From an uncultured Clostridia bacterium (lineage in GTDB: Bacteria; Bacillota; Clostridia; TANB77; CAG-508), in NCBI GenBank assembly GCA_934154805.1, contig CAKPGM010000009.1:372-64371 (forward strand): a stretch of DNA of 64,000 bases. The letters run 5' to 3'. The translations under genes were made by a program, and so were the position numbers. Below, in pieces: positions 4,433-64,000 of the stretch; within the stretch, counting starts at the first letter, position 1; each line of letters begins with the position of its first letter. The notes below the pieces were generated by a model. The model ran no database searches. It was not told where the DNA came from and worked only from the letters and a program-made list of their open reading frames with translations.

Positions 4433-4468
4433 AATAATTCACTTCCTTCTTTGTATATTTTGACAAAT

Positions 4469-5482
4469 TTACTCGTTTATAATCTGTCTAATTACCTCTG
4501 TTCTCTTTGCATCTCTTTCTTTTTTAGACATTTCTTTTCCTAGATATTTCTGTAGATTATATGGTTTTGTGTATAAATATAATTTTTTTATTTTGAAATC
4601 ATTTAACTCTGCAATTACTCCCATATCTGTTCCTAGTTTCACATCTGATAGTAGGTTTAAACATTCGTTGCTGCTCAATAATCTTGCATTTGATAGTACA
4701 CCAAATGCCCTATAGACTTTATCAGCAAATCCAATTTCGTTTTTACCTAGATATTTTCTAGCAACTCTTTCTTGCTCTATGATTTTTTCTACTATTGTTT
4801 TCATATTTTTTACTATTTCTTGCTCTGTTACTCCTAGAGTTTGATTGTTAAATATTTGATACATATCTCCTATATTTTGATTTTCATCTCCATATATTCC
4901 TGTTATGCTCATTGCAAAACTATTTACTGCGTGAAATACCTTGTTTAGGTTTCCTGTCTTTGCTAACCCTGGAAGATGCATTGTTACTGATACTCTTGCT
5001 CCTGTTCCAACATTTATTGGACAAGCTGTTAAGTATCCATATTTTTCACTATATGCATATGGTAATAACTTTTCCATTTTTTGATCTAATTCAACTGCCA
5101 AATTCATAAGTTCTTCTAAAGCTATTCCTTCTCCAAAAACTTGAAGTAATAAATGATCTTCGCTATTTATCATTATGCAGATGTTTTCTTCTTTGTTTAT
5201 TGCTATTGCTGTGCTCTCACCTTTTTCTATAAAATCTGGTGTAATTAACTTCTTTTCTACTAATGATATTTTAGTTATTTCATCCATATCTTTTAGTTTT
5301 AATAGCTGAAGTCCATAGCCTAATGAAGGGATGATCTCTTCAACTTTGTCTAATATTTGCTTTTTTTCGTCTTCACTGCATTTGTTTTCAAATTTAAATC
5401 CTTTTAAATTTCTTGCTAGTCTAACTCTTGTACTAACAACCACATCTGAATCTTTTCCATTTTGTAAATACCAGTTTGACAT
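4469..5482 (-). CDS. mcsB: Protein arginine kinase McsB
   Basis: Guanido phosphotransferase motifs (NSEDHLLLQ, CPINVGTGARVS); ATG at 5482 lies 4 nt after the mcsA stop and is preceded by AAAGGAAG; the ORF-track start at 5500 is probably too long. Confidence 0.9.
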   Translation of the reverse strand: MSNWYLQNGKDSDVVVSTRVRLARNLKGFKFENKCSEDEKKQILDKVEEIIPSLGYGLQLLKLKDMDEITKISLVEKKLITPDFIEKGESTAIAINKEENICIMINSEDHLLLQVFGEGIALEELMNLAVELDQKMEKLLPYAYSEKYGYLTACPINVGTGARVSVTMHLPGLAKTGNLNKVFHAVNSFAMSITGIYGDENQNIGDMYQIFNNQTLGVTEQEIVKNMKTIVEKIIEQERVARKYLGKNEIGFADKVYRAFGVLSNARLLSSNECLNLLSDVKLGTDMGVIAELNDFKIKKLYLYTKPYNLQKYLGKEMSKKERDAKRTEVIRQIINE

Positions 5483-5486
5483 ATTA

Positions 5487-6020
5487 TTACTTCCTTTCAT
5501 TTAGTTTTTTGATTTCATCTCTTAGTTTTGCTGCATCTTCATATCTTTCTTCTTTTATTGCTTGATTTAATTCTTGTGTTAATTTTTCTGTTTCGCTCAT
5601 TTTCTTCTCTGGCTTTTTATTTTCACCTATGTTAGAAAGTTTTTCATCTATATTTAGAGGTTTTCTTCCTATATGTTTTGTTCCTCCTTGTATATTTCTC
5701 AATACACTTTCTAGTCTATCCCCAAACATATCATAATCAGAAGGACATCCTAAAAGTCCAGTTTTTATAAAATCATCATACAATTCTCCACAGTTATTGC
5801 ACTGACTGTGTTTTTCTCTTACGAAACTTGGTAAAAGTTGCTCATCTGTGAAGAAGTCATCTAAGAAATTAGAAAAATGTATTGGCATATTAATTTTGAA
5901 ATTATCAATTCCTAATTTAGATGCACAGTCCTCGCATAGCACCATTTCCTTTTTTACTCCATTAACGATTTGTGTATATTTTACATTTGCTTCATTCTTT
6001 CCACAATTTTGACATAACAT
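5487..6020 (-). CDS. mcsA: McsA, activator of protein arginine kinase (UvrB/C motif protein)
   Basis: 177 aa; N-terminal Cys pairs (CQNCG, CEDCA, CNNCG) and C-terminal UVR motif (EERYEDAAKLRDEIKKL); position between ctsR and mcsB. Confidence 0.85.
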   Translation of the reverse strand: MLCQNCGKNEANVKYTQIVNGVKKEMVLCEDCASKLGIDNFKINMPIHFSNFLDDFFTDEQLLPSFVREKHSQCNNCGELYDDFIKTGLLGCPSDYDMFGDRLESVLRNIQGGTKHIGRKPLNIDEKLSNIGENKKPEKKMSETEKLTQELNQAIKEERYEDAAKLRDEIKKLNERK

Positions 6021-6041
6021 AGTAATTACCTCCTTTTATGT

Positions 6042-6491
6042 TTAGTCTTCAACTAAATTTACTAACATATTTTTAAATATGTTTGCTCTTAGTTGATCTC
6101 TATCTTTTGGGTCAATGTTTAAAACATTGTCACTCGTTGCGACCTTTAAAAGTTTTGCCTCATTTTGTGTTATCATTTTATATGATAGAAAATTGCTAAT
6201 AAAAATGCTTACTTCTTGCGCTGTTATAGAATTTCCCATACTTGATATTATATGCATAAAATAATTGCTTTTTGTGATGTTTACTTTTGTAATTGTAATA
6301 TGTCCTCCTCCACCACGCTTACTTTCTACATAGTATCCTTGTGTTGGTTTAAACCTTGTTGATATTACATAGTTTATTTGTGATGGTACACAATTAAATT
6401 TTTCTGCTAAGTCATTTCTTTGTATTTCTATTTTATTCTCTTCTTCAAAAAGTTCTTTTATAAATTCTTCTATCATATCTGACATTCTCAT
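6042..6491 (-). CDS. ctsR: Class III stress gene repressor CtsR
   Basis: 149 aa; HTH N-terminus and glycine-rich loop KRGGGGHI typical of CtsR; first gene of the clpC operon; CtsR box upstream. Confidence 0.9.
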   Translation of the reverse strand: MRMSDMIEEFIKELFEEENKIEIQRNDLAEKFNCVPSQINYVISTRFKPTQGYYVESKRGGGGHITITKVNITKSNYFMHIISSMGNSITAQEVSIFISNFLSYKMITQNEAKLLKVATSDNVLNIDPKDRDQLRANIFKNMLVNLVED

Positions 6492-6513
6492 TTCAGTCGC
6501 CTCTTTTCTTTGT

Positions 6514-6537
6514 TTTTGACTTTGACTTTCTTTGACC
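6514..6537 (-). promoter_or_regulatory. CtsR operator (direct heptad repeats)
   Basis: Minus strand reads GGTCAAAGAAAGTCAAAGTCAAA, matching the A/GGTCAAA-NAN-A/GGTCAAA CtsR box plus a third GTCAAA; located just downstream of the -10 element. Confidence 0.75.
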
Positions 6538-6546
6538 TACATAAAT

Positions 6547-6574
6547 ATTATAGCACGATTTTTTATGTTGTCAA
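6547..6574 (-). promoter_or_regulatory. Sigma-A type promoter of ctsR operon
   Basis: Minus strand TTGACA (6574-6569), 16-nt spacer, TATAAT (6552-6547). Confidence 0.6.
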
Positions 6575-6676
6575 TATATTTTTAATAAAATTTTTAAATT
6601 TTATTTTTCTCATTGACTTTGGTTACTGTAAGTTATACAATATAAAGCATACAATCATCAAAAAGGAGTTTTACTT

Positions 6677-7705
6677 ATGATTATTTTATTAGATGCTATG
6701 GGTGGAGATAACGCCCCTGATGCTAATATTAAAGGTGCCGTAGCTGCTATAAATCAAGTTAATGCAGAGATATGGCTAATCGGAAAAGAAGATGTAATAA
6801 AAAATAAACTAAAAGAATTCTATAATAAAACAGCTGAGGAAATTTCACCAAAATTAAAAATTTATCATGCACCAGACACTATAGAAATGGAAGACACTCC
6901 TACTGTTGCAATAAAACGCAAAAAAGAGTCTTCTATGGTTGTCGGATTTAACCTTTTAAAAGAAGGTAAAGGAGATGTGTTTATCTCTGCTGGAAATTCA
7001 GGTGCACTTCTAACTGGTGCTACTTTATTGGTTGGAAGAATTAAAGGTATTGACAGACCTGCTATTGCTGGTATCTTACCTTCATACCACAAAAGATTAG
7101 TTCTTATGGATTGTGGTTCAAATACTAATTGCAAACCTATTAATCTTTTACAATTTGCACAAATGTCTAATATTTATATTCGTGATGCTCTAAAAATAGA
7201 AAATCCAGCCATTGGTTTATTAAACATTGGAACTGAGGAGACAAAAGGTAATGAATTAATAAAAGAAAGTTATCAATTATTAAAAGAAAAATCTGAAGAA
7301 TTAGGAATCAATTTTATTGGTAATATTGAAGGGCGTGATGCTTTCTCTGGTAAAGTTGATGCTATTATAGCTGATGGATTTACAGGAAATATCTTTTTAA
7401 AGACTGTTGAAGGAATGGGTAAATTCATAAAGAAGTCTTTAAATGAAAGTATAAAGAAAAATATATTTTCTATCATTGGTGCTCTTCCTACTCTTCCTGC
7501 TTTAAATAGATTTAAGAAGATGATGGATTATAAAGAATATGGTGGAGCTTTATTCTTAGGAGTAAAGAAACCTGTTGTAAAGGCTCACGGAAGTAGTGAT
7601 GCAAAAGTTTTCGAATTTACTATAAAGCAAGCCGAACAATTTGTAAATAATAGAACTGTAGACAAATTGATTGAAGCTTTTGAATCTCAAAATGAAAATA
7701 AATAA
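6677..7705 (+). CDS. plsX: Phosphate acyltransferase PlsX
   Basis: 342 aa; LDAMGGDNAP N-terminus, GNSGA and KAHGSS motifs. Confidence 0.9.
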   Translation: MIILLDAMGGDNAPDANIKGAVAAINQVNAEIWLIGKEDVIKNKLKEFYNKTAEEISPKLKIYHAPDTIEMEDTPTVAIKRKKESSMVVGFNLLKEGKGDVFISAGNSGALLTGATLLVGRIKGIDRPAIAGILPSYHKRLVLMDCGSNTNCKPINLLQFAQMSNIYIRDALKIENPAIGLLNIGTEETKGNELIKESYQLLKEKSEELGINFIGNIEGRDAFSGKVDAIIADGFTGNIFLKTVEGMGKFIKKSLNESIKKNIFSIIGALPTLPALNRFKKMMDYKEYGGALFLGVKKPVVKAHGSSDAKVFEFTIKQAEQFVNNRTVDKLIEAFESQNENK

Positions 7706-9574: not shown

Positions 9575-9648
9575 TCAGTTTTCCTTTCTTTTTATCGGAT
9601 ATATTATAACATATAATTCTCTACATTAAAAGCTCCCTAGTACAAACG

Positions 9649-9789
9649 TTATTTTTTGTTTTTCTTTTCCGTCATTTTTTGTAGTTCTTCTGCTCTTTTT
9701 CTTTGTTCGTCCATTCCTAACCAGCAAAAATATGATGTTACAAATTCTCCATAGTTACTTGTTTTACCTTTTAATTCTTTTTCATCCAT
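9649..9789 (-). CDS. Small hypothetical protein (46 aa), not in ORF track
   Basis: ATG preceded by GGAGGTG at ~8 nt; MDEKELKGKTSNYGEFVTSYFCWLGMDEQRKRAEELQKMTEKKNKK; fills an otherwise empty 280-nt gap. Confidence 0.45.
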   Translation of the reverse strand: MDEKELKGKTSNYGEFVTSYFCWLGMDEQRKRAEELQKMTEKKNKK

Positions 9790-9853
9790 AAAAAAATACA
9801 CCTCCAAATAATTTTTATTATTTATTGTGTGTATTTTACATATTTTTATTATT

Positions 9854-10729
9854 TTAATTTAATATAAATTTTTCTATTGCTTCCGCAACTCCATCTTCAT
9901 TGTTGTTTGCCACTATTACATCTGCTAATTCCTTTATATATGGTGCTCCATTATCCATTATTATTCCCAGACCAGCATTTTGCACCATTTCTTTGTCATT
10001 TATATTATCTCCTATAGCCATTATTTCCTTAGGCTTTATGTTTAATATTTGTGATAATACTTCTAATGCACTCCATTTATTTACATTTTGACTAGTAATT
10101 TCTGTATAATGATATTCAATTTTTATTTCTTCTGTTCCTGAAGTTATATATTTTCTCGCCATATGTTGTATATCTAATACATCTATATTTTTTATTTCTC
10201 TTAGCTTCTTTATTATTCCATCAAATATTATTTTATTTTCATCACATATTGTAATTTTTAATATTCCTATATCAGGGTTTTCCATCACATATTTATATAC
10301 ATCATTTATTATTTTTATATTTGTTTTTCTATCATCTGGAGTTTTCTTGTTTTCGCTATTAAAGAATTGTATATTGTAATTTAATGATTTTGATATTATT
10401 AAATTTTCTGTATATAAACTATAAAAAATGCTGTTTTCTTCGCATATTTTTATTATTTGCAAAACTTTATTTCTTTCTATAAATTTATTATATAATATTT
10501 GTTCTTTTTGGATATCATATAAAGCAGAACCGTTGCCACATATCATATAATGATTTGCTCCTATTTCTTTTGCAAAACTTCTTGCTGATGATAAAGGTCT
10601 TCCTGATGCTATTACTATTTCTGTTCCTTTTTCTATTGCTTTTTTTATTGTTTCTTTATTTTTTTGCGAAACATTGCCATATGAATTAAGCAAAGTTCCA
10701 TCTAAATCTATTGCTACTAATCTATACAT
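9854..10729 (-). CDS. Cof-type HAD-IIB family hydrolase
   Basis: 291 aa; nucleophile motif AIDLDGTLL, C-terminal GDNINDKEM. Confidence 0.85.
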   Translation of the reverse strand: MYRLVAIDLDGTLLNSYGNVSQKNKETIKKAIEKGTEIVIASGRPLSSARSFAKEIGANHYMICGNGSALYDIQKEQILYNKFIERNKVLQIIKICEENSIFYSLYTENLIISKSLNYNIQFFNSENKKTPDDRKTNIKIINDVYKYVMENPDIGILKITICDENKIIFDGIIKKLREIKNIDVLDIQHMARKYITSGTEEIKIEYHYTEITSQNVNKWSALEVLSQILNIKPKEIMAIGDNINDKEMVQNAGLGIIMDNGAPYIKELADVIVANNNEDGVAEAIEKFILN

Positions 10730-10906
10730 ATTTTTTCCCTTCTTCAGTTTTTTATTATATCATATTATTTGTATTTTTGAACAGTATATTTTAAAATTTA
10801 TTTTTCATAAAATTACCAGTTTATTTTATGAATTTCCGCGCATTATATATATTGAAAAAGCAAAAAGTTTTTTTCAAGTATATTCACATTCTAGGAGGTG
10901 AAAATT

Positions 10907-11113
10907 ATGGCACATTCATCAAGCAACAGCAATTACAAAGTAGTTCCAGAAGCTGCTGACGCATTAAACAAATTCAAATATGAAGTAGCTAGCGAAGTTG
11001 GTGTTAATCTTAAAGATGGATACAACGGAGACATTTCTGCAAGAGATGCTGGTAGAATAGGTGGTAACATGGTTAAGAAGTTAATACAACAAGCTGAAAG
11101 CCAAATGAAATAG
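10907..11113 (+). CDS. Small acid-soluble spore protein, alpha/beta type
   Basis: SASP signature (KFKYEVASEVGV ... ISARDAGRIGGNMVKKLI); ATG 10907 follows AGGAGG (10893-10898); the ORF-track GTG 10898 overlaps the SD. Confidence 0.9.
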   Translation: MAHSSSNSNYKVVPEAADALNKFKYEVASEVGVNLKDGYNGDISARDAGRIGGNMVKKLIQQAESQMK

Positions 11114-11230
11114 TTTTAGTTTTATAGTTTTATAATACTACTATTATTAGACAGGATTTTAAGTTTTGAAATATGATTTAATTTAAGTAATCATTTTTGT
11201 TCTTTATCTCATTATTTAAATTAAATACAT

Positions 11231-11264
11231 AGGGCAGGATTTATTATCCTGCCTCTTTTGTTTT
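11231..11264 (+). terminator. Intrinsic terminator after SASP gene
   Basis: gggcaggat-ttatt-atcctgcc stem-loop followed by tcttttgtttt. Confidence 0.65.
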
Positions 11265-11808
11265 ATCCTATTTTATATTTTAATACTTTATATTCATAGT
11301 TTTCATATTTTTCTACTGCTTTTGTTAGCATATTTTTGTATTCTTTTGAATTTTCGTTATATTTTGTTTTGCAAAATGCTTGTATTAAAGATGTTTCTAT
11401 TATTTTTCTGTTATATTTTACTATATCTGGATTTATTACTATTGTTTTGTCTTTGTTATTTTTTATAAAACTTTCTTTCATTCTTTTTATTGTGTAATCT
11501 TTTGGTGCAAAACCAAGCATTACTCTTATTTTTTCCATACTATTAGCAATTTCTATTTCTGCTATTTCATTGTACATCTTTTTTATTGCTTCACTTACAA
11601 TCTCTACTGTTCCTGCATCTTTGTATCTTGTTGGTAAATAAATGTTTATTTCTTTTTCCCCTATGTCTAATTCTGGCACATTTATTTTTTTATAGTTTAT
11701 ATTTAAATTTAGATTTTTTCCTAACACACTTATAGTTAGATATGTTTTTATCTCTACTGGTTTTGTTAGATCTATTATTTTGCTGTTCTTGTGTTTTAGA
11801 ATACTCAT
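11263..11808 (-). CDS. YgjP/DUF45-like protein lacking the HExxH metal site
   Basis: 181 aa; C-terminal half resembles DUF45 layout, but the position expected for HELCH reads QAFCK (alignment from memory). Confidence 0.4.
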   Translation of the reverse strand: MSILKHKNSKIIDLTKPVEIKTYLTISVLGKNLNLNINYKKINVPELDIGEKEINIYLPTRYKDAGTVEIVSEAIKKMYNEIAEIEIANSMEKIRVMLGFAPKDYTIKRMKESFIKNNKDKTIVINPDIVKYNRKIIETSLIQAFCKTKYNENSKEYKNMLTKAVEKYENYEYKVLKYKIG

Positions 11809-11965
11809 TTAAATTTCCTCCTCTTTTATTGATAAACTTCTGTTCGCTTTATGTACCTATTTTACATTTTTATTTTTCATTTGTCAATACTTTTTACAAA
11901 CATTTTTTTGTATTTTTATCATTCGTCAAACATAGCTATTTTAAGCCTTTTTCTTATACTCGACC

Positions 11966-11996
11966 ATAAAAAATCAGCACTATTGCTAGTGCCGAT
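11966..11996 (-). terminator. Intrinsic terminator after eno
   Basis: atcagcac/gtgccgat 8-bp stem (one G-U on the minus strand) followed by a U-run on the minus strand. Confidence 0.6.
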
Positions 11997-12004
11997 TTTT
12001 TATA

Positions 12005-13327
<1,323 letters not shown>

Positions 13328-13419
13328 TCAATTTAACGAATTATACGAAATTCAGCTTACATTATATTATATATTTTATATTTTTTCAACATTTTTATAT
13401 TGCTTTATAAGTAGTATTT

Positions 13420-13743
13420 TTATGCTACTTTTATTCCCGTATCTATAATCTCTTTTACAAAAGAACTGGAAACTTTTTTATATTCTTCTGTTTTTATTGG
13501 ATGCGGTTCAATTCTCGGATCAATATCCCAAGTCATTCCCATTAAATCTGCCATGCAATCAAATATATCATCAAAATCATCAGAAACAACTGCTATATCG
13601 ATATCACTATCTTCATTTTCTGTTCCCTTTGCATAAGATCCAAACAATATGATTTCTTTAACTTTATATTGTTTTTTTATCTCCTTCGAAAATCGATTTA
13701 TACTATCAATTATTTCTTTATTTATTGATTTTTTAACCATTCT
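13420..13743 (-). CDS. Minimal nucleotidyltransferase (MNT-like) domain protein
   Basis: GSYAKG-x9-DIDI motif; likely start MVKKSI at 13743, overlapping the HEPN gene stop by 22 nt. Confidence 0.75.
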   Translation of the reverse strand, partial: RMVKKSINKEIIDSINRFSKEIKKQYKVKEIILFGSYAKGTENEDSDIDIAVVSDDFDDIFDCMADLMGMTWDIDPRIEPHPIKTEEYKKVSSSFVKEIIDTGIKVA

Positions 13744-14093
13744 AGTACCTCCCCTATGTATTTTACTTGTTTTGATGTATAATCGTCTGTACATTTTTCA
13801 TCAAAACTTCTTTTATAATCATCATATCTAGCACTTATATTAAATGTATTTATGGTTTGTATCATGTTTCTTATTTTGATTGGCGGTTCTAATTTTGCCT
13901 TACGAGAAAGTATAATTAAGTTATGCATTTTAGGAGCTATTGGATTTTTCGGATTATTTTTTGCATATACTCCTTTCAATGTTTTTTCAATTACTAAATG
14001 TCCTATAAATAGGCACCATGTATTTTTCTTATTCTTGCATAATACCTTCATTGTTTCATAATCACTTTCAGCACTTTCAAACCAATATTTCAT
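13722..14093 (-). CDS. HEPN domain protein
   Basis: 123-aa helical protein, HEPN-like; translationally coupled to the NT-domain gene. Confidence 0.65.
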   Translation of the reverse strand: MKYWFESAESDYETMKVLCKNKKNTWCLFIGHLVIEKTLKGVYAKNNPKNPIAPKMHNLIILSRKAKLEPPIKIRNMIQTINTFNISARYDDYKRSFDEKCTDDYTSKQVKYIGEVLEWLKNQ

Positions 14094-14199
14094 TAAGTCT
14101 GTATTATTTATATATATTTCTCTCTTTCATTCTCATATTATTATAACACCAAAGTAAAGTTTTTACTACATATACTAATACTTTTGTAAAAATATTGTT

Positions 14200-16551
14200 T
14201 TAGAATCCTGTTCTTGGTAATTTTTTCTTTTCTATAATGTTATATATTGTTGAAATTGCTGTATCTTCATCACATACCTTGAAGTTATTTATATCTCCTT
14301 CTAATATTGTGTAATTTTTTATTTTTGTATCATTTTCTAAGTTTGAATTCATCTGCATAAATATGTGTGGTTTTTCTATATTTGAAAATCCTATCTTCAC
14401 CGCTCCGAAGTTAATTTTTACTTCTGTTATTTTTTCTCCCTCTTCTAAATGTATATTTGATAAATCTATATAATTATTTTCTGTGGTTTTCAAATCTGCT
14501 TTAGCTATCATATATACATCCTTTTGATTTGTTTTATAACATACATTATATATAAGCTCCTGGTTATAAGTTCCTGTCGAAATCTTTGTGATTTTTGCAT
14601 ATTCATTTGGCAATATATCATACCAGATAAATTCGGTAAGTTCTGTTTCTCCTGAATTCATAATCTCGAATTCATAGTCCACTTCTTCATTTGATTTTAC
14701 ACTATTTTTGCAAGTTTTATTTATATTTACTCGTGGTTGTTTTGACTTGTTCGTAACATTGAGTTCTACTGTTTCTTCATCTTCTGATATTTTTATTCTG
14801 TTTTCTTCTTCATCTATTTTGTACCATTCACCTGCATCAGTTTCTCTAACTATGTACTCTCCTAATGGAAGTCCTTTGCTTTCTGCTTTTCCTTCATCGT
14901 CTGTCACTAATTCTTCTATAAAATTTCCTTCTAAATCAAATATATTAAATTTCACTCCCGGTATAGGACTTCCAGCTTCCGTTTGCAATACTTCGTTTTT
15001 ATCTTCACTCGTTTTTATAATTTTTATATAACCTTTTTTCTTCTCGTTTTCTATTTCTAGTTCTAATGTTTCATTATGTTTTATTACAACATCTTGATCT
15101 ATTCCAATTTTGTATTCTTCTTTTGTTTTTGTTTCTCTTAAAATATATTCTCCTTCATCTATGTTTGTAGCCTTTGCTTTTCCTTGTTTATCTGTTTTTA
15201 ATTTTGCTACTACTTCTCCGTCAAAATTTACAAGTTCAAACTCCACACCTTCTAACACCGTATTTTTATCATCTTTATCTACCTTTGTTATTTCTATATT
15301 TCCTCTTTTTCGTTTGTTCTTTATTTCTATTACATATTTCCCATTGTATCTAGGATTTACTTCTCTTATGTCGCTATTTAATGCGTATTTTTCATTTGCT
15401 TCAATCTCTTTTATTAGTATTGGTCTTGCATATAATTCTCCTACAGTTATTATTCCATCCTTGTCTGTAGTATATGTACCTATTATTTCTCCATCTTTGT
15501 ATGATAATTCAAATGTTGTTCCTTCTATTGTTTCTTTTGTTTCTTCATCAATTTTTATTATTTCTAACGTAGAGCAATTTCCTTTTATATCTAAAATTAA
15601 TTCTCTTTCTGCAAAGTCTTCTCTATCCTGAATTATTATATAGTTTTGTTTGTTTTCCATATTACTTGTTGCATAATATACTGGGTAAGTCGTTTCTTTT
15701 GATGTATATTTTACTTTCACTTCTAAATCTGTATTTATTTTTTCTGTTGGAACTAAGATTTTAAATTTTTCACCAACATTAAGAGTTGTTTTTATCTTTC
15801 CATTTAGATCTACAACTTGTGCTCCTTCTAAATTAATTCCAATTATATTTATCTCTGAGTTAGCCTTTTTTACTTGATATTCCTGAGAATAATATTTTCT
15901 TTTGTATCTGTCTTGTTTAAATTCTCCTATCTTGGCAAACTCAGGCTCCTCAGAATTTACATCTTGCGATGCTCCATTATATCCTATCTCAACAAGTTTA
16001 TAAATTGCGTCAACTACTTTTCTTCCTCTTCGTTGAATATCATCCAGACTTTGACCATTTATTTCTGTTTGTCCTGGTCTAAAGTATCCATAAACATCTT
16101 CTAATTTTTTCTCTCGTATAATCCAATATATTGCTTGTTTAGTAGCTAAGTAACCATCATCTTCTGTTTCTACTCCCAATTGAGCTAACGATACATAAGG
16201 ATATCCATTTTTTAATACCCTATGTATTCTTTCATCTGTTAGTCTATGTTCAACTTTTGTAGAATAACTTTCTTCTTCTCCTGGTAGCCATCCCACTCCA
16301 TTTAAGTCAGGATTTACACAATACGCTATCTTCTTATTGCCTTCTTTATCAGTATAATATGTTCTTGAATATGTTACATACATCCATTCATCTCTTGTTA
16401 CATCCCAATATTGAATTGTATAAAACCCAAGTGGACCTCTTTCTATGTTTATTTCATCTCCAATATTTATATTGCTTGCAAATGTTATTGTTGTTGGTAA
16501 TAATAACATTACTATCTGTAGAATTATCATTATTTTCTTTATTTTATTCAT
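14200..16551 (-). CDS. Surface adhesin: N-terminal thioester (TQXA-type) domain plus CnaB/SpaA-type repeats, C-terminal LPRTG
   Basis: Signal peptide from MNKIKK (ATG 16551, SD upstream); AYCVNP, NGYPY and ATKQAIYW motifs; at least 3 repeats of the type (T/K)K.DE/D..(L/I)EG..FEL....GE; ends LPRTGF-stop. Confidence 0.7.
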   Translation of the reverse strand: MNKIKKIMIILQIVMLLLPTTITFASNINIGDEINIERGPLGFYTIQYWDVTRDEWMYVTYSRTYYTDKEGNKKIAYCVNPDLNGVGWLPGEEESYSTKVEHRLTDERIHRVLKNGYPYVSLAQLGVETEDDGYLATKQAIYWIIREKKLEDVYGYFRPGQTEINGQSLDDIQRRGRKVVDAIYKLVEIGYNGASQDVNSEEPEFAKIGEFKQDRYKRKYYSQEYQVKKANSEINIIGINLEGAQVVDLNGKIKTTLNVGEKFKILVPTEKINTDLEVKVKYTSKETTYPVYYATSNMENKQNYIIIQDREDFAERELILDIKGNCSTLEIIKIDEETKETIEGTTFELSYKDGEIIGTYTTDKDGIITVGELYARPILIKEIEANEKYALNSDIREVNPRYNGKYVIEIKNKRKRGNIEITKVDKDDKNTVLEGVEFELVNFDGEVVAKLKTDKQGKAKATNIDEGEYILRETKTKEEYKIGIDQDVVIKHNETLELEIENEKKKGYIKIIKTSEDKNEVLQTEAGSPIPGVKFNIFDLEGNFIEELVTDDEGKAESKGLPLGEYIVRETDAGEWYKIDEEENRIKISEDEETVELNVTNKSKQPRVNINKTCKNSVKSNEEVDYEFEIMNSGETELTEFIWYDILPNEYAKITKISTGTYNQELIYNVCYKTNQKDVYMIAKADLKTTENNYIDLSNIHLEEGEKITEVKINFGAVKIGFSNIEKPHIFMQMNSNLENDTKIKNYTILEGDINNFKVCDEDTAISTIYNIIEKKKLPRTGF

Positions 16552-16564
16552 CTTTCCATCCTTT

Positions 16565-17101
16565 CTAAATGTTACTTTCCACAGCTTGTACACACAGCCT
16601 TTGATTTACTCTGTTTTTTATACAGGTTATCAATGTAAGTTTATTTTCACTAGAATTTTCTAGTGTACTCCAATCTGTTTCCAGTATGTCTTTTTTCTCA
16701 CTTACTTTATATTTTCTATCTCCATATTTATTTTGATAAATTATTTCGTCTCCTATTTCTAGCTCATTAATTCTCGCAAAATACGAATGTTGATTTCCTC
16801 TATTATGCGCCGCTAGTCCTACATTGCCATCATATTTAGCGGTTTCTTCTATATGTCCTATGTAATCTTTTAATATTTCTTGAGAACTTCCTTCTTTTAT
16901 TTCTCCATTTAAGCCTATCTTTTTGATTATTAATCTTCCCATTATCCCTTCTTCAAATTCTTCTGTTTTCTCTTGCTTGGCCTCTTCTGTTATGTTGTTT
17001 GTATTTTCTTTGTTTAACTTTTTTTGATTATATGCAACTAATCCCACTAATGAAATTAATAAAATGAGCACAATAAATAAAACAAACAGTTTTTTATACA
17101 T
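16565..17101 (-). CDS. Sortase (class D/other; membrane anchored)
   Basis: 178 aa; N-terminal TM, LAAHN His motif, TLITC catalytic Cys, downstream Arg; stop codon 13 nt before the adhesin start. Confidence 0.85.
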   Translation of the reverse strand: MYKKLFVLFIVLILLISLVGLVAYNQKKLNKENTNNITEEAKQEKTEEFEEGIMGRLIIKKIGLNGEIKEGSSQEILKDYIGHIEETAKYDGNVGLAAHNRGNQHSYFARINELEIGDEIIYQNKYGDRKYKVSEKKDILETDWSTLENSSENKLTLITCIKNRVNQRLCVQAVESNI

Positions 17102-17200
17102 ATTTGTATCTCCTTATATTTTTAATTATTTTTTGGATTTGTTTAAGAATTAATTTTCTTAGATTTTAATTTCATATATCAAAATACATAATTTTATTCT

Positions 17201-17228
17201 ATTATACTAAAAAGTGCAGTAAAGTCAA
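17201..17228 (-). promoter_or_regulatory. Sigma-A type promoter of sortase-adhesin operon
   Basis: Minus strand TTGACT (17228-17223), 16 nt, TATAAT (17206-17201). Confidence 0.55.
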
Positions 17229-17271
17229 TATTTTCCGGATATAATCGTATGTCAAATTTCGACATATAATA

Positions 17272-17307
17272 CAAAAAATAAGAGGAACTTTTATAATTCC
17301 TCTTATT
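17272..17307 (-). terminator. Intrinsic terminator after hpf
   Basis: 11-bp stem aataagaggaa/ttcctcttatt followed by a U-run on the minus strand. Confidence 0.7.
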
Positions 17308-17317
17308 TCTACATAAT

Positions 17318-17848
17318 TTATGCTTCTGGTTCTACTAAACCATAGTTTTTATTATCTTTTAATCTGTATATTACATTTACTTTGCCTGTTTCAATGTTTA
17401 CAAATGTTAAGAATTTATTTTGTGGTTGATCTTCTAATAGAAGTTTTGCATCTTCTGGTCCCATTGGTTTAATTGGATAGTATATTGTTTTTACTATCTC
17501 GTCTGTTATTTCAGTCTCTTCTGATCTATTTTCTTCTTTTAATCTTATAGATTCTGTCATATTTTGTTTGTCTTTTTTAGTTTTCATTTTTCTTATTTGA
17601 CCTTCTAATATGTCAACATCTTTATCTATAGATGCATATAAATCTCTACTTGCTGTTACAGCTCTGAAAGTTTCACCCATTGCAGATACTTGCATTTCAG
17701 CAACTTGATCTTCTCCCTCTTTTTTTATTGTTACATATAGATCTAATTCTTCTTCAAAATATTTTTGTATTCTGTCTGTTTTAGAATCAATATAATTCTT
17801 TATAGCTTCTGTAGCTTTTAAGTCCTTTCCTATTATTTTTATGTTCAT
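17318..17848 (-). CDS. hpf: Ribosome hibernation promoting factor (long HPF)
   Basis: MNIKIIGKDL start with GAAAGGAGC SD; S30AE/HPF N-domain plus C-terminal dimerisation domain; the ORF-track N-terminal 41 aa are probably not translated. Confidence 0.9.
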   Translation of the reverse strand: MNIKIIGKDLKATEAIKNYIDSKTDRIQKYFEEELDLYVTIKKEGEDQVAEMQVSAMGETFRAVTASRDLYASIDKDVDILEGQIRKMKTKKDKQNMTESIRLKEENRSEETEITDEIVKTIYYPIKPMGPEDAKLLLEDQPQNKFLTFVNIETGKVNVIYRLKDNKNYGLVEPEA

Positions 17849-18028
17849 AAAAATCGCTCCTTTCAATTTATCGCATTGTGTTTTGTTTTTGGTACTCTCA
17901 TTATATATGTTTTCTTTTATTTTTGCAACTATTTTTTGATTTTTTGCGTTAATCCTTGCAAAATTAACCATTTCGTGTTACAATAGTATCTGTTACAGAA
18001 ATAAACTTAATTCGAGGAGGTGCTAAAT

Positions 18029-18295
18029 ATGCCAAATATTAAATCTGCAATTAAACGTGTAAGCGTTATTGATAAGAAAACTGCTAGAAATAATATGATT
18101 AAATCTGGATATAAATCAGCTGTTAAGAAATTTGAACAAGCTGTTGAAGCTGGAAATGTTGAAGAAGCAAAGACATTATTCTCTGCTGCTACAAAGAAAA
18201 TAGATCAAGCTTGTACAAAAGGTGTTATCGTTAAGAACACAGCTGCTAGAAAAAAATCTTTATTAGCAAAAAAATTAAACGCTATGAATGCGTAA
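18029..18295 (+). CDS. rpsT: 30S ribosomal protein S20
   Basis: [10 protein letters not shown] start after GAGGAGG; typical S20 sequence. Confidence 0.95.
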
Positions 18296-18327
18296 AATAA
18301 AAAATTGTGCACAGTTTTTTGTTTTTT

Positions 18328-18358
18328 CGTCTAAGGTTCATCCTTGGACGATTTTTTT
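18328..18358 (+). terminator. Intrinsic terminator after rpsT
   Basis: cgtctaagg-ttcat-ccttggacg stem followed by T7. Confidence 0.75.
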
Positions 18359-18461
18359 GTTTGACTGCCTTCTCAGAAGTTCTGCTATAAATTTCCACTA
18401 TATTTCTTGTATTTTCTGTGTTATGATTAATATAGATACTTTTTTACAAGGAGAATGGATT

Positions 18462-60370: not shown

Positions 60371-60389
60371 ATTATTTTCCTATATGTAT

Positions 60390-60419
60390 AAAGCAATATA
60401 GTGTTCGCTATATTGCTTT
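60390..60419 (-). promoter_or_regulatory. 12-bp perfect hairpin in the 5' UTR of the glycosyltransferase operon
   Basis: aaagcaatatag / ctatattgcttt with a 6-nt loop, ending 20 nt upstream of the start codon at 60370; no U-run follows on the minus strand. Confidence 0.4.
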
Positions 60420-60495
60420 ATATTACTTTTATATTTATTTGTAATTTTTTATATAGCTCTAACTCAGGATTTCATATCTTCCTTTGCTTATCGCA

Positions 60496-60524
60496 AGTAT
60501 ATCATACCTGTTTTTTAGAGTCAA
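60496..60524 (-). promoter_or_regulatory. Sigma-A type promoter (extended -10) of glycosyltransferase operon
   Basis: Minus strand TTGACT (60524-60519), 17 nt, TATACT (60501-60496) with TG at -15/-14. Confidence 0.55.
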
Positions 60525-60541: not shown

Positions 60542-61852
60542 TTATTTTACTATTAAAGTTGGGCGAGTACCAAGCAGTTTAAATCCATTGCTTGGAGCTC
60601 CTTGTCTGCTCCTACTACAAGCGGCACCTTCTAATCCATTCCATTGGCAATAGCCTCCTCTATATTCCCTATATAAATTTCTACTTGCCTCCTGAGTCCA
60701 CTCTACGCAGTTTCCAGCTAAATCATATATATTATTAGCTTTCCATGCTTCATTCGAACCAGTTTCTTTTAAGATAGCACTATAGGCTTGTGGTGGTTTC
60801 TCATAATTTCCTTCATTAGCAGGAGCAATTGAATCAACATAGTTTCCCCAGCTTCTCGAATCTACTATACTCTTCTTTTCTCCCTTGCTTGCTATAAAAT
60901 TACATACCATATCCCATTGACATCCCCATATCATTTGTGTTTCTACTTTTTCACTAGCATTCAATGTTTCACATTCATTATATAATTCATACCAGTTTTT
61001 ATCTACTAATGTTGATTGATTTTTTTGAACACCTTCTGATGATAATTCATACCTTCCTACATAAAAGCCACCATATTTATTTACACTATCTATCATAGAT
61101 TTATAATTTGCAATAAATGCTTTCGCCATTTCTTCAGAACTTCCAAATCCTAATATTTCATTATAGTATTTTTCTTTCAGGTCAAACTCAGTTATCAAAT
61201 CTGGTTCACGAATACTATTTCTATTTCCCGGTATTCCTCTTGGAGCAGCCTGTAATTCTTCTGACGCATATGGATTTATTGAAGAAGAATCTGTTTCTAT
61301 CTTTATAGGTCTTGAATATAATTTTGTTGTTACTTCGTCTGTTCCATCTAATGTATATTCTATAGAACTTGATGTATCACACATTACTGTTACATTTGGT
61401 ACAGGTACCCATACCCATTCATTACCACCATCGTCCGTTATCACTAATCCTTGGTCTACATCATTTTGCGTTGGAGCTTGTTCTCCATTTCCCCATTTTG
61501 ATGTATCTGTATCTATTGGAGTATATCCTTCTGGAATTATTGGATTATTAGATGTTGCTTTTTTTCCATTTATTGTTCCATTTGCTGTAGCTTTTGTATC
61601 TACTGCTACTTTTATAGGTCTTGGATTTCCTGTAACTTGTTCATCTATCCACTCAGATGTATTTTCTAAATCTTCTTGTTCATTCGCTCTTGACTGTGCA
61701 TATTTATTTTTTGCATCTTTTGACTTGCCAATTATTCCATTATTATCCAATACTAGGCTAATGCTCACTCCTGCTAGTATTAATAATACCACTATAGTAA
61801 CTACTAATGCTATTAAGGTTATACCTTTTTTTTCATTTAAGTTTTTTAACAT
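60542..61852 (-). CDS. Pilin-like N-terminal anchor + FGE/SUMF1-fold domain protein, paralog 1
   Basis: 436 aa; N-terminus KKGITLIALVVTIVVLLILAGV (prepilin-like but Ala at +5); GNEWVWVPVP, GFYVGRYELS, NNIYDLAGNCVEWTQE, RGG; ends GTRPTLIVK. Confidence 0.75.
   Translation of the reverse strand: MLKNLNEKKGITLIALVVTIVVLLILAGVSISLVLDNNGIIGKSKDAKNKYAQSRANEQEDLENTSEWIDEQVTGNPRPIKVAVDTKATANGTINGKKATSNNPIIPEGYTPIDTDTSKWGNGEQAPTQNDVDQGLVITDDGGNEWVWVPVPNVTVMCDTSSSIEYTLDGTDEVTTKLYSRPIKIETDSSSINPYASEELQAAPRGIPGNRNSIREPDLITEFDLKEKYYNEILGFGSSEEMAKAFIANYKSMIDSVNKYGGFYVGRYELSSEGVQKNQSTLVDKNWYELYNECETLNASEKVETQMIWGCQWDMVCNFIASKGEKKSIVDSRSWGNYVDSIAPANEGNYEKPPQAYSAILKETGSNEAWKANNIYDLAGNCVEWTQEASRNLYREYRGGYCQWNGLEGAACSRSRQGAPSNGFKLLGTRPTLIVK
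61689..61798. repeat. 110-nt perfect direct repeat, copy A (5' coding region of paralog 1)
   Basis: Identical by direct comparison to 63090-63199. Confidence 0.9.
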
Positions 61853-61879
61853 TCTCTTTTGCTCCTTTACTTTAATAAT

Positions 61880-63253
61880 TTATTTTGTCTTATTGTTTTT
61901 AATCGATGTGTAGATTATTTTACTATTAGAGTTGGACGAGTACCGTACATATGAACTCGTTTTCCAGTCTGGTGAGGCAAACCAACTATCGCTACGACTA
62001 AATACCGGAGATTCTCCAGTTCCAGAGTTTGCATAATTACCGCCTCTAGCAAGTCTGCTATTGAAACCAATTGCCTCTTGAGTCCATTCAGTGCAATTTC
62101 CCGCCAAATCATAAATATTATTTGCTTTCCAAGCTTCGTTTGACCCCGTATTCTTTTTTATTGCACACCAAGAAGCTAGTTCGTAATTTCCTGTATTTGC
62201 TGGCGACGTTGAATCACGATAGTTTCCCCATGATCTTGAATCTACTACACTTTTTTGTTCTCCCTTAGTTCCTATAAATTTACACGCCATATCCCATTGG
62301 CATCCCCATATCATTTGTGCTTCTGCTTTTTCACTTGCATTTAACTCTTTGCAATGTTTATATAATTCATACCAATCTGTTTCCGTTAGCGTAGCTTTAT
62401 CTTTTTGTACACCTTCAGCAGACAATTCATATCTTCCAATATAGAAACCTCCATATTTTTGTATGCTTTCTAGCATCTCTTTATAGCTTGCCACAAATGC
62501 TTCAGCCATTTGTTCAGAACTTTCAAAACCCAATGTTGTTTTATAGTTTTCTTCTTTTATATCATAAGCATCTCCTCCAGTATATCTTTCTATAACTAGG
62601 TCCGGTTCACGACAACCTCCCGTTGTTCCTGAAATAACTCTTGGCGCTGCATATAACTCATTATCTTTATATGGGTTAATTGACTCAGAATCAGTCACTA
62701 TTTGTATAGGCTTTGAATACAGTTTTGTCGTTACATTTTCTGTTCCATACAATGTATATTCTATGGTATTTGATGTGTCACACATTACCGTTACATCTGG
62801 TACAGGTATCCATACCCATTCATTTCCTTTTTCATCTGATATTACTAGACCGTGGTCTACATCATTTTGAGTTGGAGCAGTACTGCCATCTCCCCATTTT
62901 GATGTATCTGTATCTATTGGAATGTATCCTTTAGGGATAATTGGATTATTAGATGTTGCTTTTCTTCCATTGATTGTTCCGTTATCAGTAGCCTCTGTAT
63001 TCACCGCAACTTTCTTAGGTCTTGGCTCTCCTGTAATCAGTTCATCTATCCAATCAGAAGCATCTTCCAGATCACTTTGTTCATTTTTTCTTGACTGTGC
63101 ATATTTATTTTTTGCATCTTTTGACTTGCCAATTATTCCATTATTATCCAATACTAGGCTAATGCTCACTCCTGCTAGTATTAATAATACCACTATAGTT
63201 ACCACTAGAGCTATTAAGGTTATACCTTTTTCTTCATTTAATTTTTTTAACAT
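61880..63253 (-). CDS. Pilin-like N-terminal anchor + FGE/SUMF1-fold domain protein, paralog 2 (C-terminus in shifted frame)
   Basis: 457 aa; ~75% identical to paralog 1 by eye; the conserved terminal DNA is read as VRYSSNSNSKIIY..., while GTRPTLIVK-stop lies in the +1 frame (61915). Confidence 0.7.
   Translation of the reverse strand: MLKKLNEEKGITLIALVVTIVVLLILAGVSISLVLDNNGIIGKSKDAKNKYAQSRKNEQSDLEDASDWIDELITGEPRPKKVAVNTEATDNGTINGRKATSNNPIIPKGYIPIDTDTSKWGDGSTAPTQNDVDHGLVISDEKGNEWVWIPVPDVTVMCDTSNTIEYTLYGTENVTTKLYSKPIQIVTDSESINPYKDNELYAAPRVISGTTGGCREPDLVIERYTGGDAYDIKEENYKTTLGFESSEQMAEAFVASYKEMLESIQKYGGFYIGRYELSAEGVQKDKATLTETDWYELYKHCKELNASEKAEAQMIWGCQWDMACKFIGTKGEQKSVVDSRSWGNYRDSTSPANTGNYELASWCAIKKNTGSNEAWKANNIYDLAGNCTEWTQEAIGFNSRLARGGNYANSGTGESPVFSRSDSWFASPDWKTSSYVRYSSNSNSKIIYTSIKNNKTK
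63090..63199. repeat. 110-nt perfect direct repeat, copy B (5' coding region of paralog 2)
   Basis: Identical by direct comparison to 61689-61798; the flanking ~200 nt are also near-identical. Confidence 0.9.
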
Positions 63254-63280
63254 TTTCTTTTGCTCCTTTACTTTAATAAT

Positions 63281-64000
63281 TCATTTTCTCTTATTGTTTT
63301 TAATTGATGTGTAAATTATTTTACTATTAGAGTTGGACGAGTACCGTACTCTATTAAATGTGTGATACGTTCTAAATCCAGACCATTTTCCAAAAGCTGA
63401 AGCTCCCACGTCCATATAGTTACCTCCTCTATCAACTCTACTTACTCCTGCTTCTTGAGTCCACTCATTACAATTTCCCGCTAAATCGTATATATTATTT
63501 GCTTTCCATGCTTCATTTGATCCTGTATTCTTTCTTACAGCTGCATAACCATTAGTATCTTTCTCATAATTTCCCGTATCTGCTGGAGATATCGAATCTG
63601 CATAATTTCCCCAAGATCTTGAATCTATAATATCTTTCTTTTCTCCTCTGCTTGCAATAAAATTACAAGCCATATCCCATTGACATCCCCAAATCATACC
63701 TATTTCTACGTTTTCATTTACATTAAGATCTTTACACTTTACGTATAATTCGTACCATTTAATTAAATTCAAAGTTGGTTGATCTTTTTTCACTCCTTCG
63801 GCCGATAGCTCATATCTTCCTATATAAAAACCACCATATTTTTTAATGCTATTTATCATATTCTTATAATCTTGCACAAATGTTTCTGCCATTTCCTCTT
63901 TACTTGAAAAACCCATTATTCCATTATAATATTCTTTTTGAGAGTCATCACCTTCAACATATCCACCTATCACATCTGGTTCGCGATTTCCTCTTATGTT
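63281..64000 (-). CDS. Pilin-like/FGE-fold protein, paralog 3 (5' part beyond window end)
   Basis: Frame stays open to position 64000 (IRGNREPDVIGGYVEG aligns with paralogs 1 and 2); same shifted C-terminus as paralog 2. Confidence 0.7.
   Translation of the reverse strand, partial: NIRGNREPDVIGGYVEGDDSQKEYYNGIMGFSSKEEMAETFVQDYKNMINSIKKYGGFYIGRYELSAEGVKKDQPTLNLIKWYELYVKCKDLNVNENVEIGMIWGCQWDMACNFIASRGEKKDIIDSRSWGNYADSISPADTGNYEKDTNGYAAVRKNTGSNEAWKANNIYDLAGNCNEWTQEAGVSRVDRGGNYMDVGASAFGKWSGFRTYHTFNRVRYSSNSNSKIIYTSIKNNKRK

Follow-up and report, generated by a model that had tools for sequence, protein, structure and literature searches.

Three tandem lectin-fold genes with a pilin-like anchor in an uncultured Clostridia bacterium: probable frozen members of a family targeted by diversity-generating retroelements

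A 64,000-nucleotide (nt) stretch of an uncultured Clostridia genome (assembly GCA_934154805.1, contig CAKPGM010000009.1, positions 372 to 64,371 of the forward strand; hereafter the window) ends in a row of related genes, each joining a pilin-like N-terminus to a domain resembling the formylglycine-generating enzyme (FGE), and the locus raises the question of what such proteins are and why several stand side by side. Three intact minus-strand paralogues (genes 1, 2 and 3) are arranged head-to-tail in the open reading frame (ORF) list, separated by 27-nt spacers, with gene 3 listed as 63281-63973+ and running off the window. An earlier note, made from the DNA letters alone, had described these genes, with starts at 61852 and 63253, as products of tandem duplication; the ORF list bears out the arrangement, the DNA identity of 73-78% among the three agrees with the duplication, and all of the motifs quoted in that note are present in the translations (KKGITLIALVVTIVVLLILAGVSISLVL, GNEWVW(V/I)PVP, GGFY(V/I)GRYELS, WGCQWDM, NNIYDLAGNC.EWTQE and RGG). 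Each gene has a ribosome-binding site, either of the AAAGGAG type or GAAGGGGA. Past position 64000, where a search for more copies had been proposed, a metagenome contig (L001) with an identical gene 1 product and 10 kb of sequence beyond the window shows the third gene and then an agr-like locus, giving exactly three copies in the array and no further copies or pilus genes past the window end. The best explanation overall is probably that the genes are frozen members of a pilin-anchored family of variable receptors of the type rewritten by diversity-generating retroelements (DGRs).

The least conserved stretch among the paralogues and their homologues comprises the ~27-31 codons between RGG and the G(T/S)RPTLI(I/V)K end. 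The earlier note had assigned the variability to a Thr/Asn-rich middle of the protein, a view that had to be given up, since the key variable stretch is formed by the last ~30 codons, from RGG to G(T/S)RPTL. In most family genes from related genomes, the G+C content of this stretch is 0.45-0.64, compared with 0.33-0.37 in the 200 codons upstream, and the A content is approximately halved; NNC codons account for 0.43-0.64 of the variable region (VR) vs. 0.05-0.14 of the 200 upstream codons (in ~37 of 47 genes). In most of the family genes from related genomes, the composition of the stretch reads as the signature of adenine mutagenesis from an AAC-rich template.

The link to a DGR was made through a homologue on another contig (L051), which matches the family profile in hhalign (probability 100, E 7e-79) over an alignment extending from the pilin-like helix through the VR. 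The template repeat (TR) of this homologue lies 232 nt downstream of the VR start and reads RGGYYNNNGSNNPARNRNNNNPNNTNNNRGSRPTL; of 135 aligned bases, 21 are mismatched between VR and TR, and 19 of these 21 fall at TR adenines (A to T 10, A to G 8, A to C 1). Its cassette (4179-5208) continues with Avd and then a reverse transcriptase (RT) split in two ORFs by a frameshift. The combination of a MutS-like accessory protein (MSL), Avd and RT corresponds to 'architecture D' of Wu et al. (PMC5758913). Additionally, such genes were found directly 3' of family genes on four other contigs: RT, bAvd (E 3e-20) and MutS_I (E 7e-11) in L062, an MSL/Avd/RT cassette with a truncated RT in L046 (2325-2742), a cassette remnant with the RT missing in L026 (11380-12228), and only an MSL remnant in L055 (11563-11676). 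A further contig (L079) carries an apparently intact cassette on a different lectin-type target with the same pilin-like N-terminus, and the differences within its VR/TR pair fall almost exclusively at adenines. Downstream of its RT, L062 repeats the VR 3' end over only 32 nt; the homology goes no further, and the repeat is therefore taken as supporting evidence only. For the subfamily marked by 'RFSSHFNNKV', two metagenome pattern scans for a TR gave nothing, or only VRs and one deletion variant, and a synthetic Asn-rich template-like peptide used as a protein-search query found no match. In the relatives the hypervariable C-terminal stretch is a DGR variable region, and genes 1-3 are homologous to proven DGR targets, with the homology covering the VR.

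DGR cassettes near family genes are often decayed, the RT being split, truncated or missing, or an MSL fragment standing alone.

The domain that carries the variable stretch was placed by structure prediction. AlphaFold returned a predicted local distance difference test score (pLDDT) of 74.8 for full-length gene 1 and of 77.8 for residues 125-436, the latter with a predicted TM-score (pTM) of 0.83. When the domain model was compared with the PDB in Foldseek, the best 50 of 57 matches all had an FGE-type C-type-lectin fold, and among those listed were PorK (probability 0.98), copper-bound FGE (0.94), EgtB, OvsA, SenA, ToxD, TvpA, TaqVP and Mtd; the top two matches of the full-length model were TaqVP and TvpA, and the best named matches in the viral library were a SUMF-like phage protein and tail collar fibres. 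The family profile had a sole match in the PDB, human SUMF2 (E 0.047). An FGE-type C-type-lectin fold is accordingly supported by the models and accepted at the level of fold. A catalytic FGE was rejected: the family consensus RGGxYxxxGSxxPASxR has no conserved FGE copper-binding Cys pair after RGG, and the two Cys of gene 1 have another spacing and are not kept in its orthologues, in agreement with the non-catalytic domain that the earlier note had proposed. The lectin domains of genes 1-3 are only 62-77% identical to each other. The domain of gene 1 contains an insert, IEYTLDGTDEVTTKLYSRPIKI (window 61274-61396, residues 153-193), that resembles CHB_HEX_C (chitobiase/hexosaminidase C-terminal)/Fn3_assoc with an E of 0.001, below threshold.

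Genes 1-3 themselves look like frozen, non-diversifying relics of DGR targets. The NNC fraction of their VR equivalents is 0.11-0.18, which ranks near the bottom of the family. Motif search and tblastn of the window detected no RT, Avd or MSL, and no TR-like copy of the three 3' ends was found in the window or in L001 (10 kb upstream), where sensitive blastn returned paralogues only. Strains share 97-100% identity in these genes. The window agrees with three contigs (L001-L003) at every position of the 3' ends, and for genes 2 and 3 the 3' 360 nt show no difference from L001 (100% identity in both comparisons); five contigs encode a protein exactly the same as that of gene 1. A related species likewise has a fixed VR in 12 protein variants, whose N-terminal part is mosaic. 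Pairwise ratios of nonsynonymous to synonymous substitution rates (dN/dS) of 0.03-0.27 in the anchor/stalk, middle and lectin parts denote purifying selection, and genes 1-3 are therefore not pseudogenes. Over alignment nt 300-450, within the stalk region, identity between genes 2 and 3 is 98-100%. Gene conversion is suggested by the 5' part of gene 2, which is similar to gene 3 in the window and to gene 1 instead in L001.

The N-terminus bears on how the variable domain would be displayed. A short leader, MLKNLNEKKG, ends in Gly and is followed by ITLIALVVTIVVLLILAGVSISLVL; the gene 1 N-terminus aligns with geopilin N-termini (E 0.17), and in the L062 homologue the N_methyl model PF07963 scores 21.9 bits, over its cut-off. 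The pilin-like N-terminus with Ala at +5 that the earlier note had pointed out proved to be a property of the family: the residue is Ala in genes 1-3 and in every one of the 41 close homologues whose N-terminus is complete, and among 84 family N-termini from the fetched loci it is Ala in 81, Ser in 3 and Glu in none. Prepilin peptidase requires Gly at -1, and pilins depend on Glu5 to assemble inside the filament, a residue missing from tip subunits, GspK among them. In the window, motif searches, tblastn, partial Pfam annotation and reading of the translations found no prepilin peptidase, GspE-type ATPase, RT or extra pilin-like gene, upholding what had been noted before for the peptidase and the ATPase. 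Two related genomes, L008 and L013, have a Peptidase_A24 gene (E 2e-19 and 4e-19); it lies among housekeeping genes in the order HAD-A24-PepQ-EF-P, outside any pilus operon. Two ORFs with 'GSTGSGKST', considered as pilus ATPase candidates, are both ABC transporters. Surface display and a binding role, as adhesin or receptor, are what we infer for the proteins. They are probably simply held in the membrane by the N-terminal helix; cleavage by prepilin peptidase and subsequent display at the tip of a type IV filament is a tentative possibility.

Combined, these results suggest a mechanism in which genes 1-3 would encode paralogous cell-surface ligand-binding proteins, each consisting of a short basic leader ending in Gly, a type-IV-pilin-like helix without Glu5, a long helical stalk and a non-catalytic FGE-type C-type-lectin domain, the last ~30 residues of which would form a variable binding surface. 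In some family members a DGR (MSL, Avd, RT and TR) would rewrite the C-terminal segment via adenine-specific mutagenesis; in the array described here the rewriting would have ceased, and diversity would come from the three diverged copies and gene conversion among them.

Several observations speak against this explanation or parts of it. The Pfam model FGE-sulfatase (PF03781) scores 12.8 and 13.5 bits compared with a cut-off of 23.3 (E 0.05-0.09) and does not reach its gathering score, so that of the FGE/SUMF1 domain claimed in the earlier note the fold stood and the Pfam assignment did not. The Foldseek matches have E-values of 7e-3 to 1, none at or below 1e-3, and TM-scores of ~0.3. For the window proteins the N_methyl model PF07963 gives 15.5 and 14.5 bits vs. 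a cut-off of 21.2, below the gathering score. The last strand of the domain is read out of frame in genes 2 and 3 and could represent a damaged C-terminus. With regard to display on a filament, 1.2 Mb of related loci yielded neither a pilus GspE-type ATPase nor a platform gene. Finally, the part of this genome examined amounts to ~74 kb, and a remote DGR would lie outside it.

That last point leads to the first rival explanation, in which genes 1-3 are still being diversified by a DGR, with an RT/TR cassette at a distant chromosomal site acting on them in trans. The family includes a proven DGR target (L051), remote targets are documented, with seven in Treponema denticola (PMC5758913), and genes 1-3 have kept the conserved 3' element. 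This explanation is nevertheless considered improbable: the VRs are 100% identical across independent assemblies while other parts of gene 2 differ, the NNC imprint is almost gone in genes 1-3, and in the related species, too, the VR does not change. Moreover, the three VRs are unlike in length and sequence, and a single TR could therefore not serve all of them. The positions of the VR equivalents and of the other features of the array are given in Table 1.

Table 1. Positions in the window of the features of the array and of the adjoining promoter-like site.
Feature	Position	Strand	Description
Gene 1	60542..61852	-	436 residues; pilin-like N-terminus, helical stalk, FGE-type C-type-lectin domain; canonical-frame C-terminus GTRPTLIVK, then stop
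Gene 1, leader and hydrophobic segment	61748..61852	-	Leader MLKNLNEKK-G and 26-residue hydrophobic segment ITLIALVV...SLVL; class-III-signal-like, Ala at +5
Gene 1, lectin domain (residues 125-436)	60545..61480	-	FGE-type C-type-lectin domain with inserted small beta module, residues ~153-193
Gene 1, VR equivalent	60572..60652	-	The 27 codons that separate RGG from GTRP; NNC imprint eroded
Gene 1, conserved 3' element	60542..60571	-	GGTACTCGCCCAACTTTAATAGTAAAATAA; in frame; homologous to the VR 3' boundary/initiation of mutagenic homing (IMH) region of relatives
Gene 2	61880..63253	-	457-residue paralogue; conserved C-terminal element read +1 out of frame, ending in VRYSSNSNSKIIYTSIKNNKTK, then stop
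Gene 2, leader and hydrophobic segment	63149..63253	-	Hydrophobic segment identical to that of gene 1
Gene 2, VR equivalent	61945..62038	-	
Gene 2, conserved 3' element	61915..61944	-	+1 offset vs. ORF; ORF continues to 61880
Gene 3, 3' 720 nt	63281..64000	-	Full gene 464 residues (L001 7178-8572); same +1 offset at C-terminus
Gene 3, VR equivalent	63346..63421	-	
Gene 3, conserved 3' element	63316..63345	-	+1 offset vs. ORF
Promoter-like site	60496..60524	-	TTGACT-17-TATACT with TG; between gene 1 and first glycosyltransferase gene; consensus match only

A second rival, likewise of low probability, is that the proteins are lectin-like pseudopilins acting with the adjacent glycan operon, for instance as proteins that bind or arrange the surface polysaccharide made by the cell itself. 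Downstream of the array the window holds a cluster of glycosyltransferase, radical-SAM, ABC-transporter and Wzy-like genes, and genes 1-3 lie directly upstream of it on the same strand, in an arrangement kept in three contigs of the same species. The link that the earlier note had drawn from this position did not hold up, however, as it is not conserved; elsewhere, family genes sit among housekeeping genes (enolase, YgjP, HAD, RsmB). In addition, the promoter-like site between gene 1 and the operon suggests that the glycan operon can be transcribed independently, and a variable C-terminus fits changing external ligands better than a fixed self-glycan.

The third rival treats genes 1-3 as decaying pseudogenes or as remnants of prophage-derived receptor-binding proteins, and the frame of the conserved 3' element is one observation pertinent to it. 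The 30-nt element, GGT ACT CGY CCA ACT YTA ATA GTA AAA TAA, is read in frame in gene 1; the +1 offset makes genes 2 and 3 end in VRYSSNSNSKIIYTSIKNNK(T/R)K. The same offset was found in 26 of 53 unique 3' ends in which the ORF reads through the element, always as one extra base before GGTTCT, and among 85 close homologues 56 are offset and 18 canonical. In L079 it is present in both VR and TR (16130-16170 and 16410-16450), where the ORF reads YRFPSSCGCALAL to its stop and the other frame reads IGFRPVVVVP to a stop. The offset group has 13 distinct variants of the 24-nt core, of which 8 leave the peptide of the unread canonical frame unchanged and 0 that of the open frame; no conservation is seen in the tails past the canonical stop. 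Most simply, the template would have gained one extra base that homing then copied to every target, the scrambled tail being tolerated. Programmed +1 slippage is unlikely as the main cause because the codon before the junction is hypervariable and there is no conserved slippery site. A more elaborate account, regarded as quite unlikely, is that in this Clostridia lineage the DGR template carries a one-base offset, which homing would copy into many paralogues together, with +1 recoding into the G(S/T)RPTLI(I/V)K frame at the junction, or with copies toggling on and off between in-frame and out-of-frame states atop hypermutation. Taken with Glu5-less pilin-type anchors and a lone prepilin peptidase, family members would then serve as interchangeable receptors, at the surface or the pilus tip, that can be switched. 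A frame offset at the VR boundary is not mentioned in the DGR papers searched.

Decay or a phage origin could draw on this offset, on the decayed state of several DGR cassettes beside relatives and on a fold that is common to phage tail-fibre proteins. The shared occurrence of the offset in close homologues and in the apparently intact target/TR pair of L079 shows, however, that it is no private lesion of genes 2 and 3. Each ORF is undamaged and preceded by a ribosome-binding site, the dN/dS values and the near identity across strains noted above count against this rival, and no phage genes were noticed on reading the translated ORFs of the window. No relatives of genes 1-3 were found in IMG/VR or in phage GenBank records, and PHROGs gave weak matches only, to families of unknown function. 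The pseudogene or prophage origin that the earlier note had allowed for was consequently set aside, and its probability is put lower again than that of a role with the glycan operon. Least credible are FGE/EgtB-type enzymes (for formylglycine generation or C-S bond formation), which have in their favor the fold likeness to FGE and EgtB and against them the missing copper-binding Cys pair, the lack of any DinB-like partner domain seen or of any sulfatase seen in the window (by partial Pfam annotation and reading of the translations only, with no dedicated search), an N-terminal anchor that predicts an extracytoplasmic protein, and a hypervariable region located where FGE has its active site.

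Genes 1-3 belong to a very large, unnamed family. With the gene 1 protein as query, 7889 matches were obtained among 8000 scored candidates, none of them named or with a precomputed Pfam domain, and an exhaustive search of cluster representatives gave 20513 matches at E<=1e-3, 2722 at 1e-10 and 282 at 1e-30. In species-representative genomes the relatives come from uncultured gut Clostridia (Clostridium sp. CAG:780, UMGS1901, UMGS1650 and UMGS1476, and metagenome-assembled genomes (MAGs) from Hadza people, rabbit and chicken); the MAG CAKOVU01 alone has at least 17 family copies. The literature search found no study of this family. Its domain also forms long tandem repeats inside single polypeptides, and 12-17 matched stretches of the lectin-type domain were counted in giant proteins of 5309 (P0136), 6477 (P0251) and 3424 (P0138) residues.

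Family genes appear and disappear among conserved neighbour genes. The gene order GatCAB-S20-sortase-SpaA-enolase-YgjP-HAD-RsmB-Hsp33 is common to the window and a related contig, L004, where three family genes and a PDDEXK_2 gene are inserted between enolase, YgjP, HAD and RsmB (10001-18459). The window has only short intergenic gaps at these insertion sites (9575-12004), which indicates a presence/absence polymorphism of the family. In another relative (L086 85-109), the middle of a family gene, ending in KAMAEAFTA, is fused straight to the conserved 3' element, the entire lectin domain being deleted.

Besides the array, the window (G+C 25-35%) contains sporulation and housekeeping genes of a small Clostridia genome, as read from the translations. 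Directly upstream of the array, Pfam annotation of L001 identified an agr-type quorum-sensing locus (3776-6687) of AgrB, a 39-residue AgrD-like ORF, a GHKL histidine kinase and a LytTR response regulator, and further out are genes for RluA, a methyltransferase and UvrC. Transcription of the kinase and regulator genes diverges from that of the array, and the agr-type locus could therefore control it. Between the LytTR regulator gene and gene 3, an inverted repeat, ATTGGT-N15/16-ACCAAT, occurs in two copies 290 nt apart (L001 6730-6757 and 7020-7046), and these repeats upstream of gene 3 may be operator sites. On the downstream side, a palindrome with a 17-bp stem (60386-60423) lies just upstream of the first glycosyltransferase start codon; no T-run follows it on the coding (minus) strand, and it is therefore not terminator-like for the array. 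Elsewhere in the window (14200-17101), a sortase gene adjoins a gene for a 797-residue LPxTG protein with a thioester TED and three SpaA domains, which is a second, sortase-dependent surface adhesin or pilin system.

These findings matter in several respects. Uncultured gut Clostridia devote many genes to this one unnamed family, with at least 17 in one MAG and thousands in public data. A DGR-type receptor on a pilin-like anchor would have a testable role in the changeable binding of host, dietary, phage or bacterial ligands. The loci span an apparently intact cassette, decayed cassettes and frozen targets and are thus useful for following the fate of hypervariable receptors after loss of the mutator, and the widespread one-base offset at the VR boundary bears on how DGR boundaries constrain coding sequence.

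Among known systems, the modular pilins of Streptococcus sanguinis keep Glu5 and are encoded within the pil locus. The gene 1-3 proteins share with PilB and PilC of that species a short Gly-ending leader, a hydrophobic pilin-type helix and a grafted ligand-binding module, which is a vWA module in PilB and a lectin module in PilC (PMC8179133); PilB has a canonical class III signal peptide (PMC8179133). The earlier note knew of no characterised member of the architecture, and none was found, but the combination of N-methyl motif and SUMF domain (IPR012902-IPR005532) had already been catalogued, with 8 proteins listed as 'modular pilins' (PMC8179133 Dataset S1). The present family differs from the S. 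sanguinis modular pilins in the replacement of Glu5 by Ala or Ser in all family N-termini examined, in having no evident globular pilin module and in the absence of nearby pil genes. In the tip minor pseudopilins of the GspK/PilX class, Glu5 is missing and a large additional domain follows a pilin-type helix at the N-terminus. The gene 1-3 proteins resemble them in all of these features and differ in having no GspI/J-like partner or secretion system nearby and no detected sequence similarity; GspK has itself been discussed as a modular tip pilin (PMC8179133).

Membrane-anchored cellular DGR targets have been described with an N-terminal transmembrane or signal segment and a C-terminal C-type-lectin VR, for which extracellular substrate binding was proposed (Roux et al. 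2021, PMC8144416), and a GspG-type pilin domain has been mentioned briefly among rare DGR target domains (PMC11661182). The gene 1-3 proteins agree with the former in their N-terminal membrane segment and C-terminal lectin VR, whereas neither a pilin-type anchor nor the gene 1-3 family nor copies frozen as relics are described in the survey of Roux et al. The DGR variable proteins TvpA (Treponema denticola), TaqVP (Thermus aquaticus) and, more distantly, Mtd (Bordetella phage) offer the remaining comparison. These solved proteins have no detectable sequence similarity to the family and carry a lipoprotein signal or phage tail-fibre module in place of the pilin-like N-terminus; additionally, genes 1-3 have no cognate TR or RT nearby and show no diversification, and many family members have the +1 offset. 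The likeness lies in the fold class, in a variable segment at the extreme C-terminus, bounded by an RGG-type motif and a G-x-R-P last strand, in the true VR/TR pair with adenine-specific differences, Avd and RT in members of the gene 1-3 family, and in the presence of several paralogous targets per genome.

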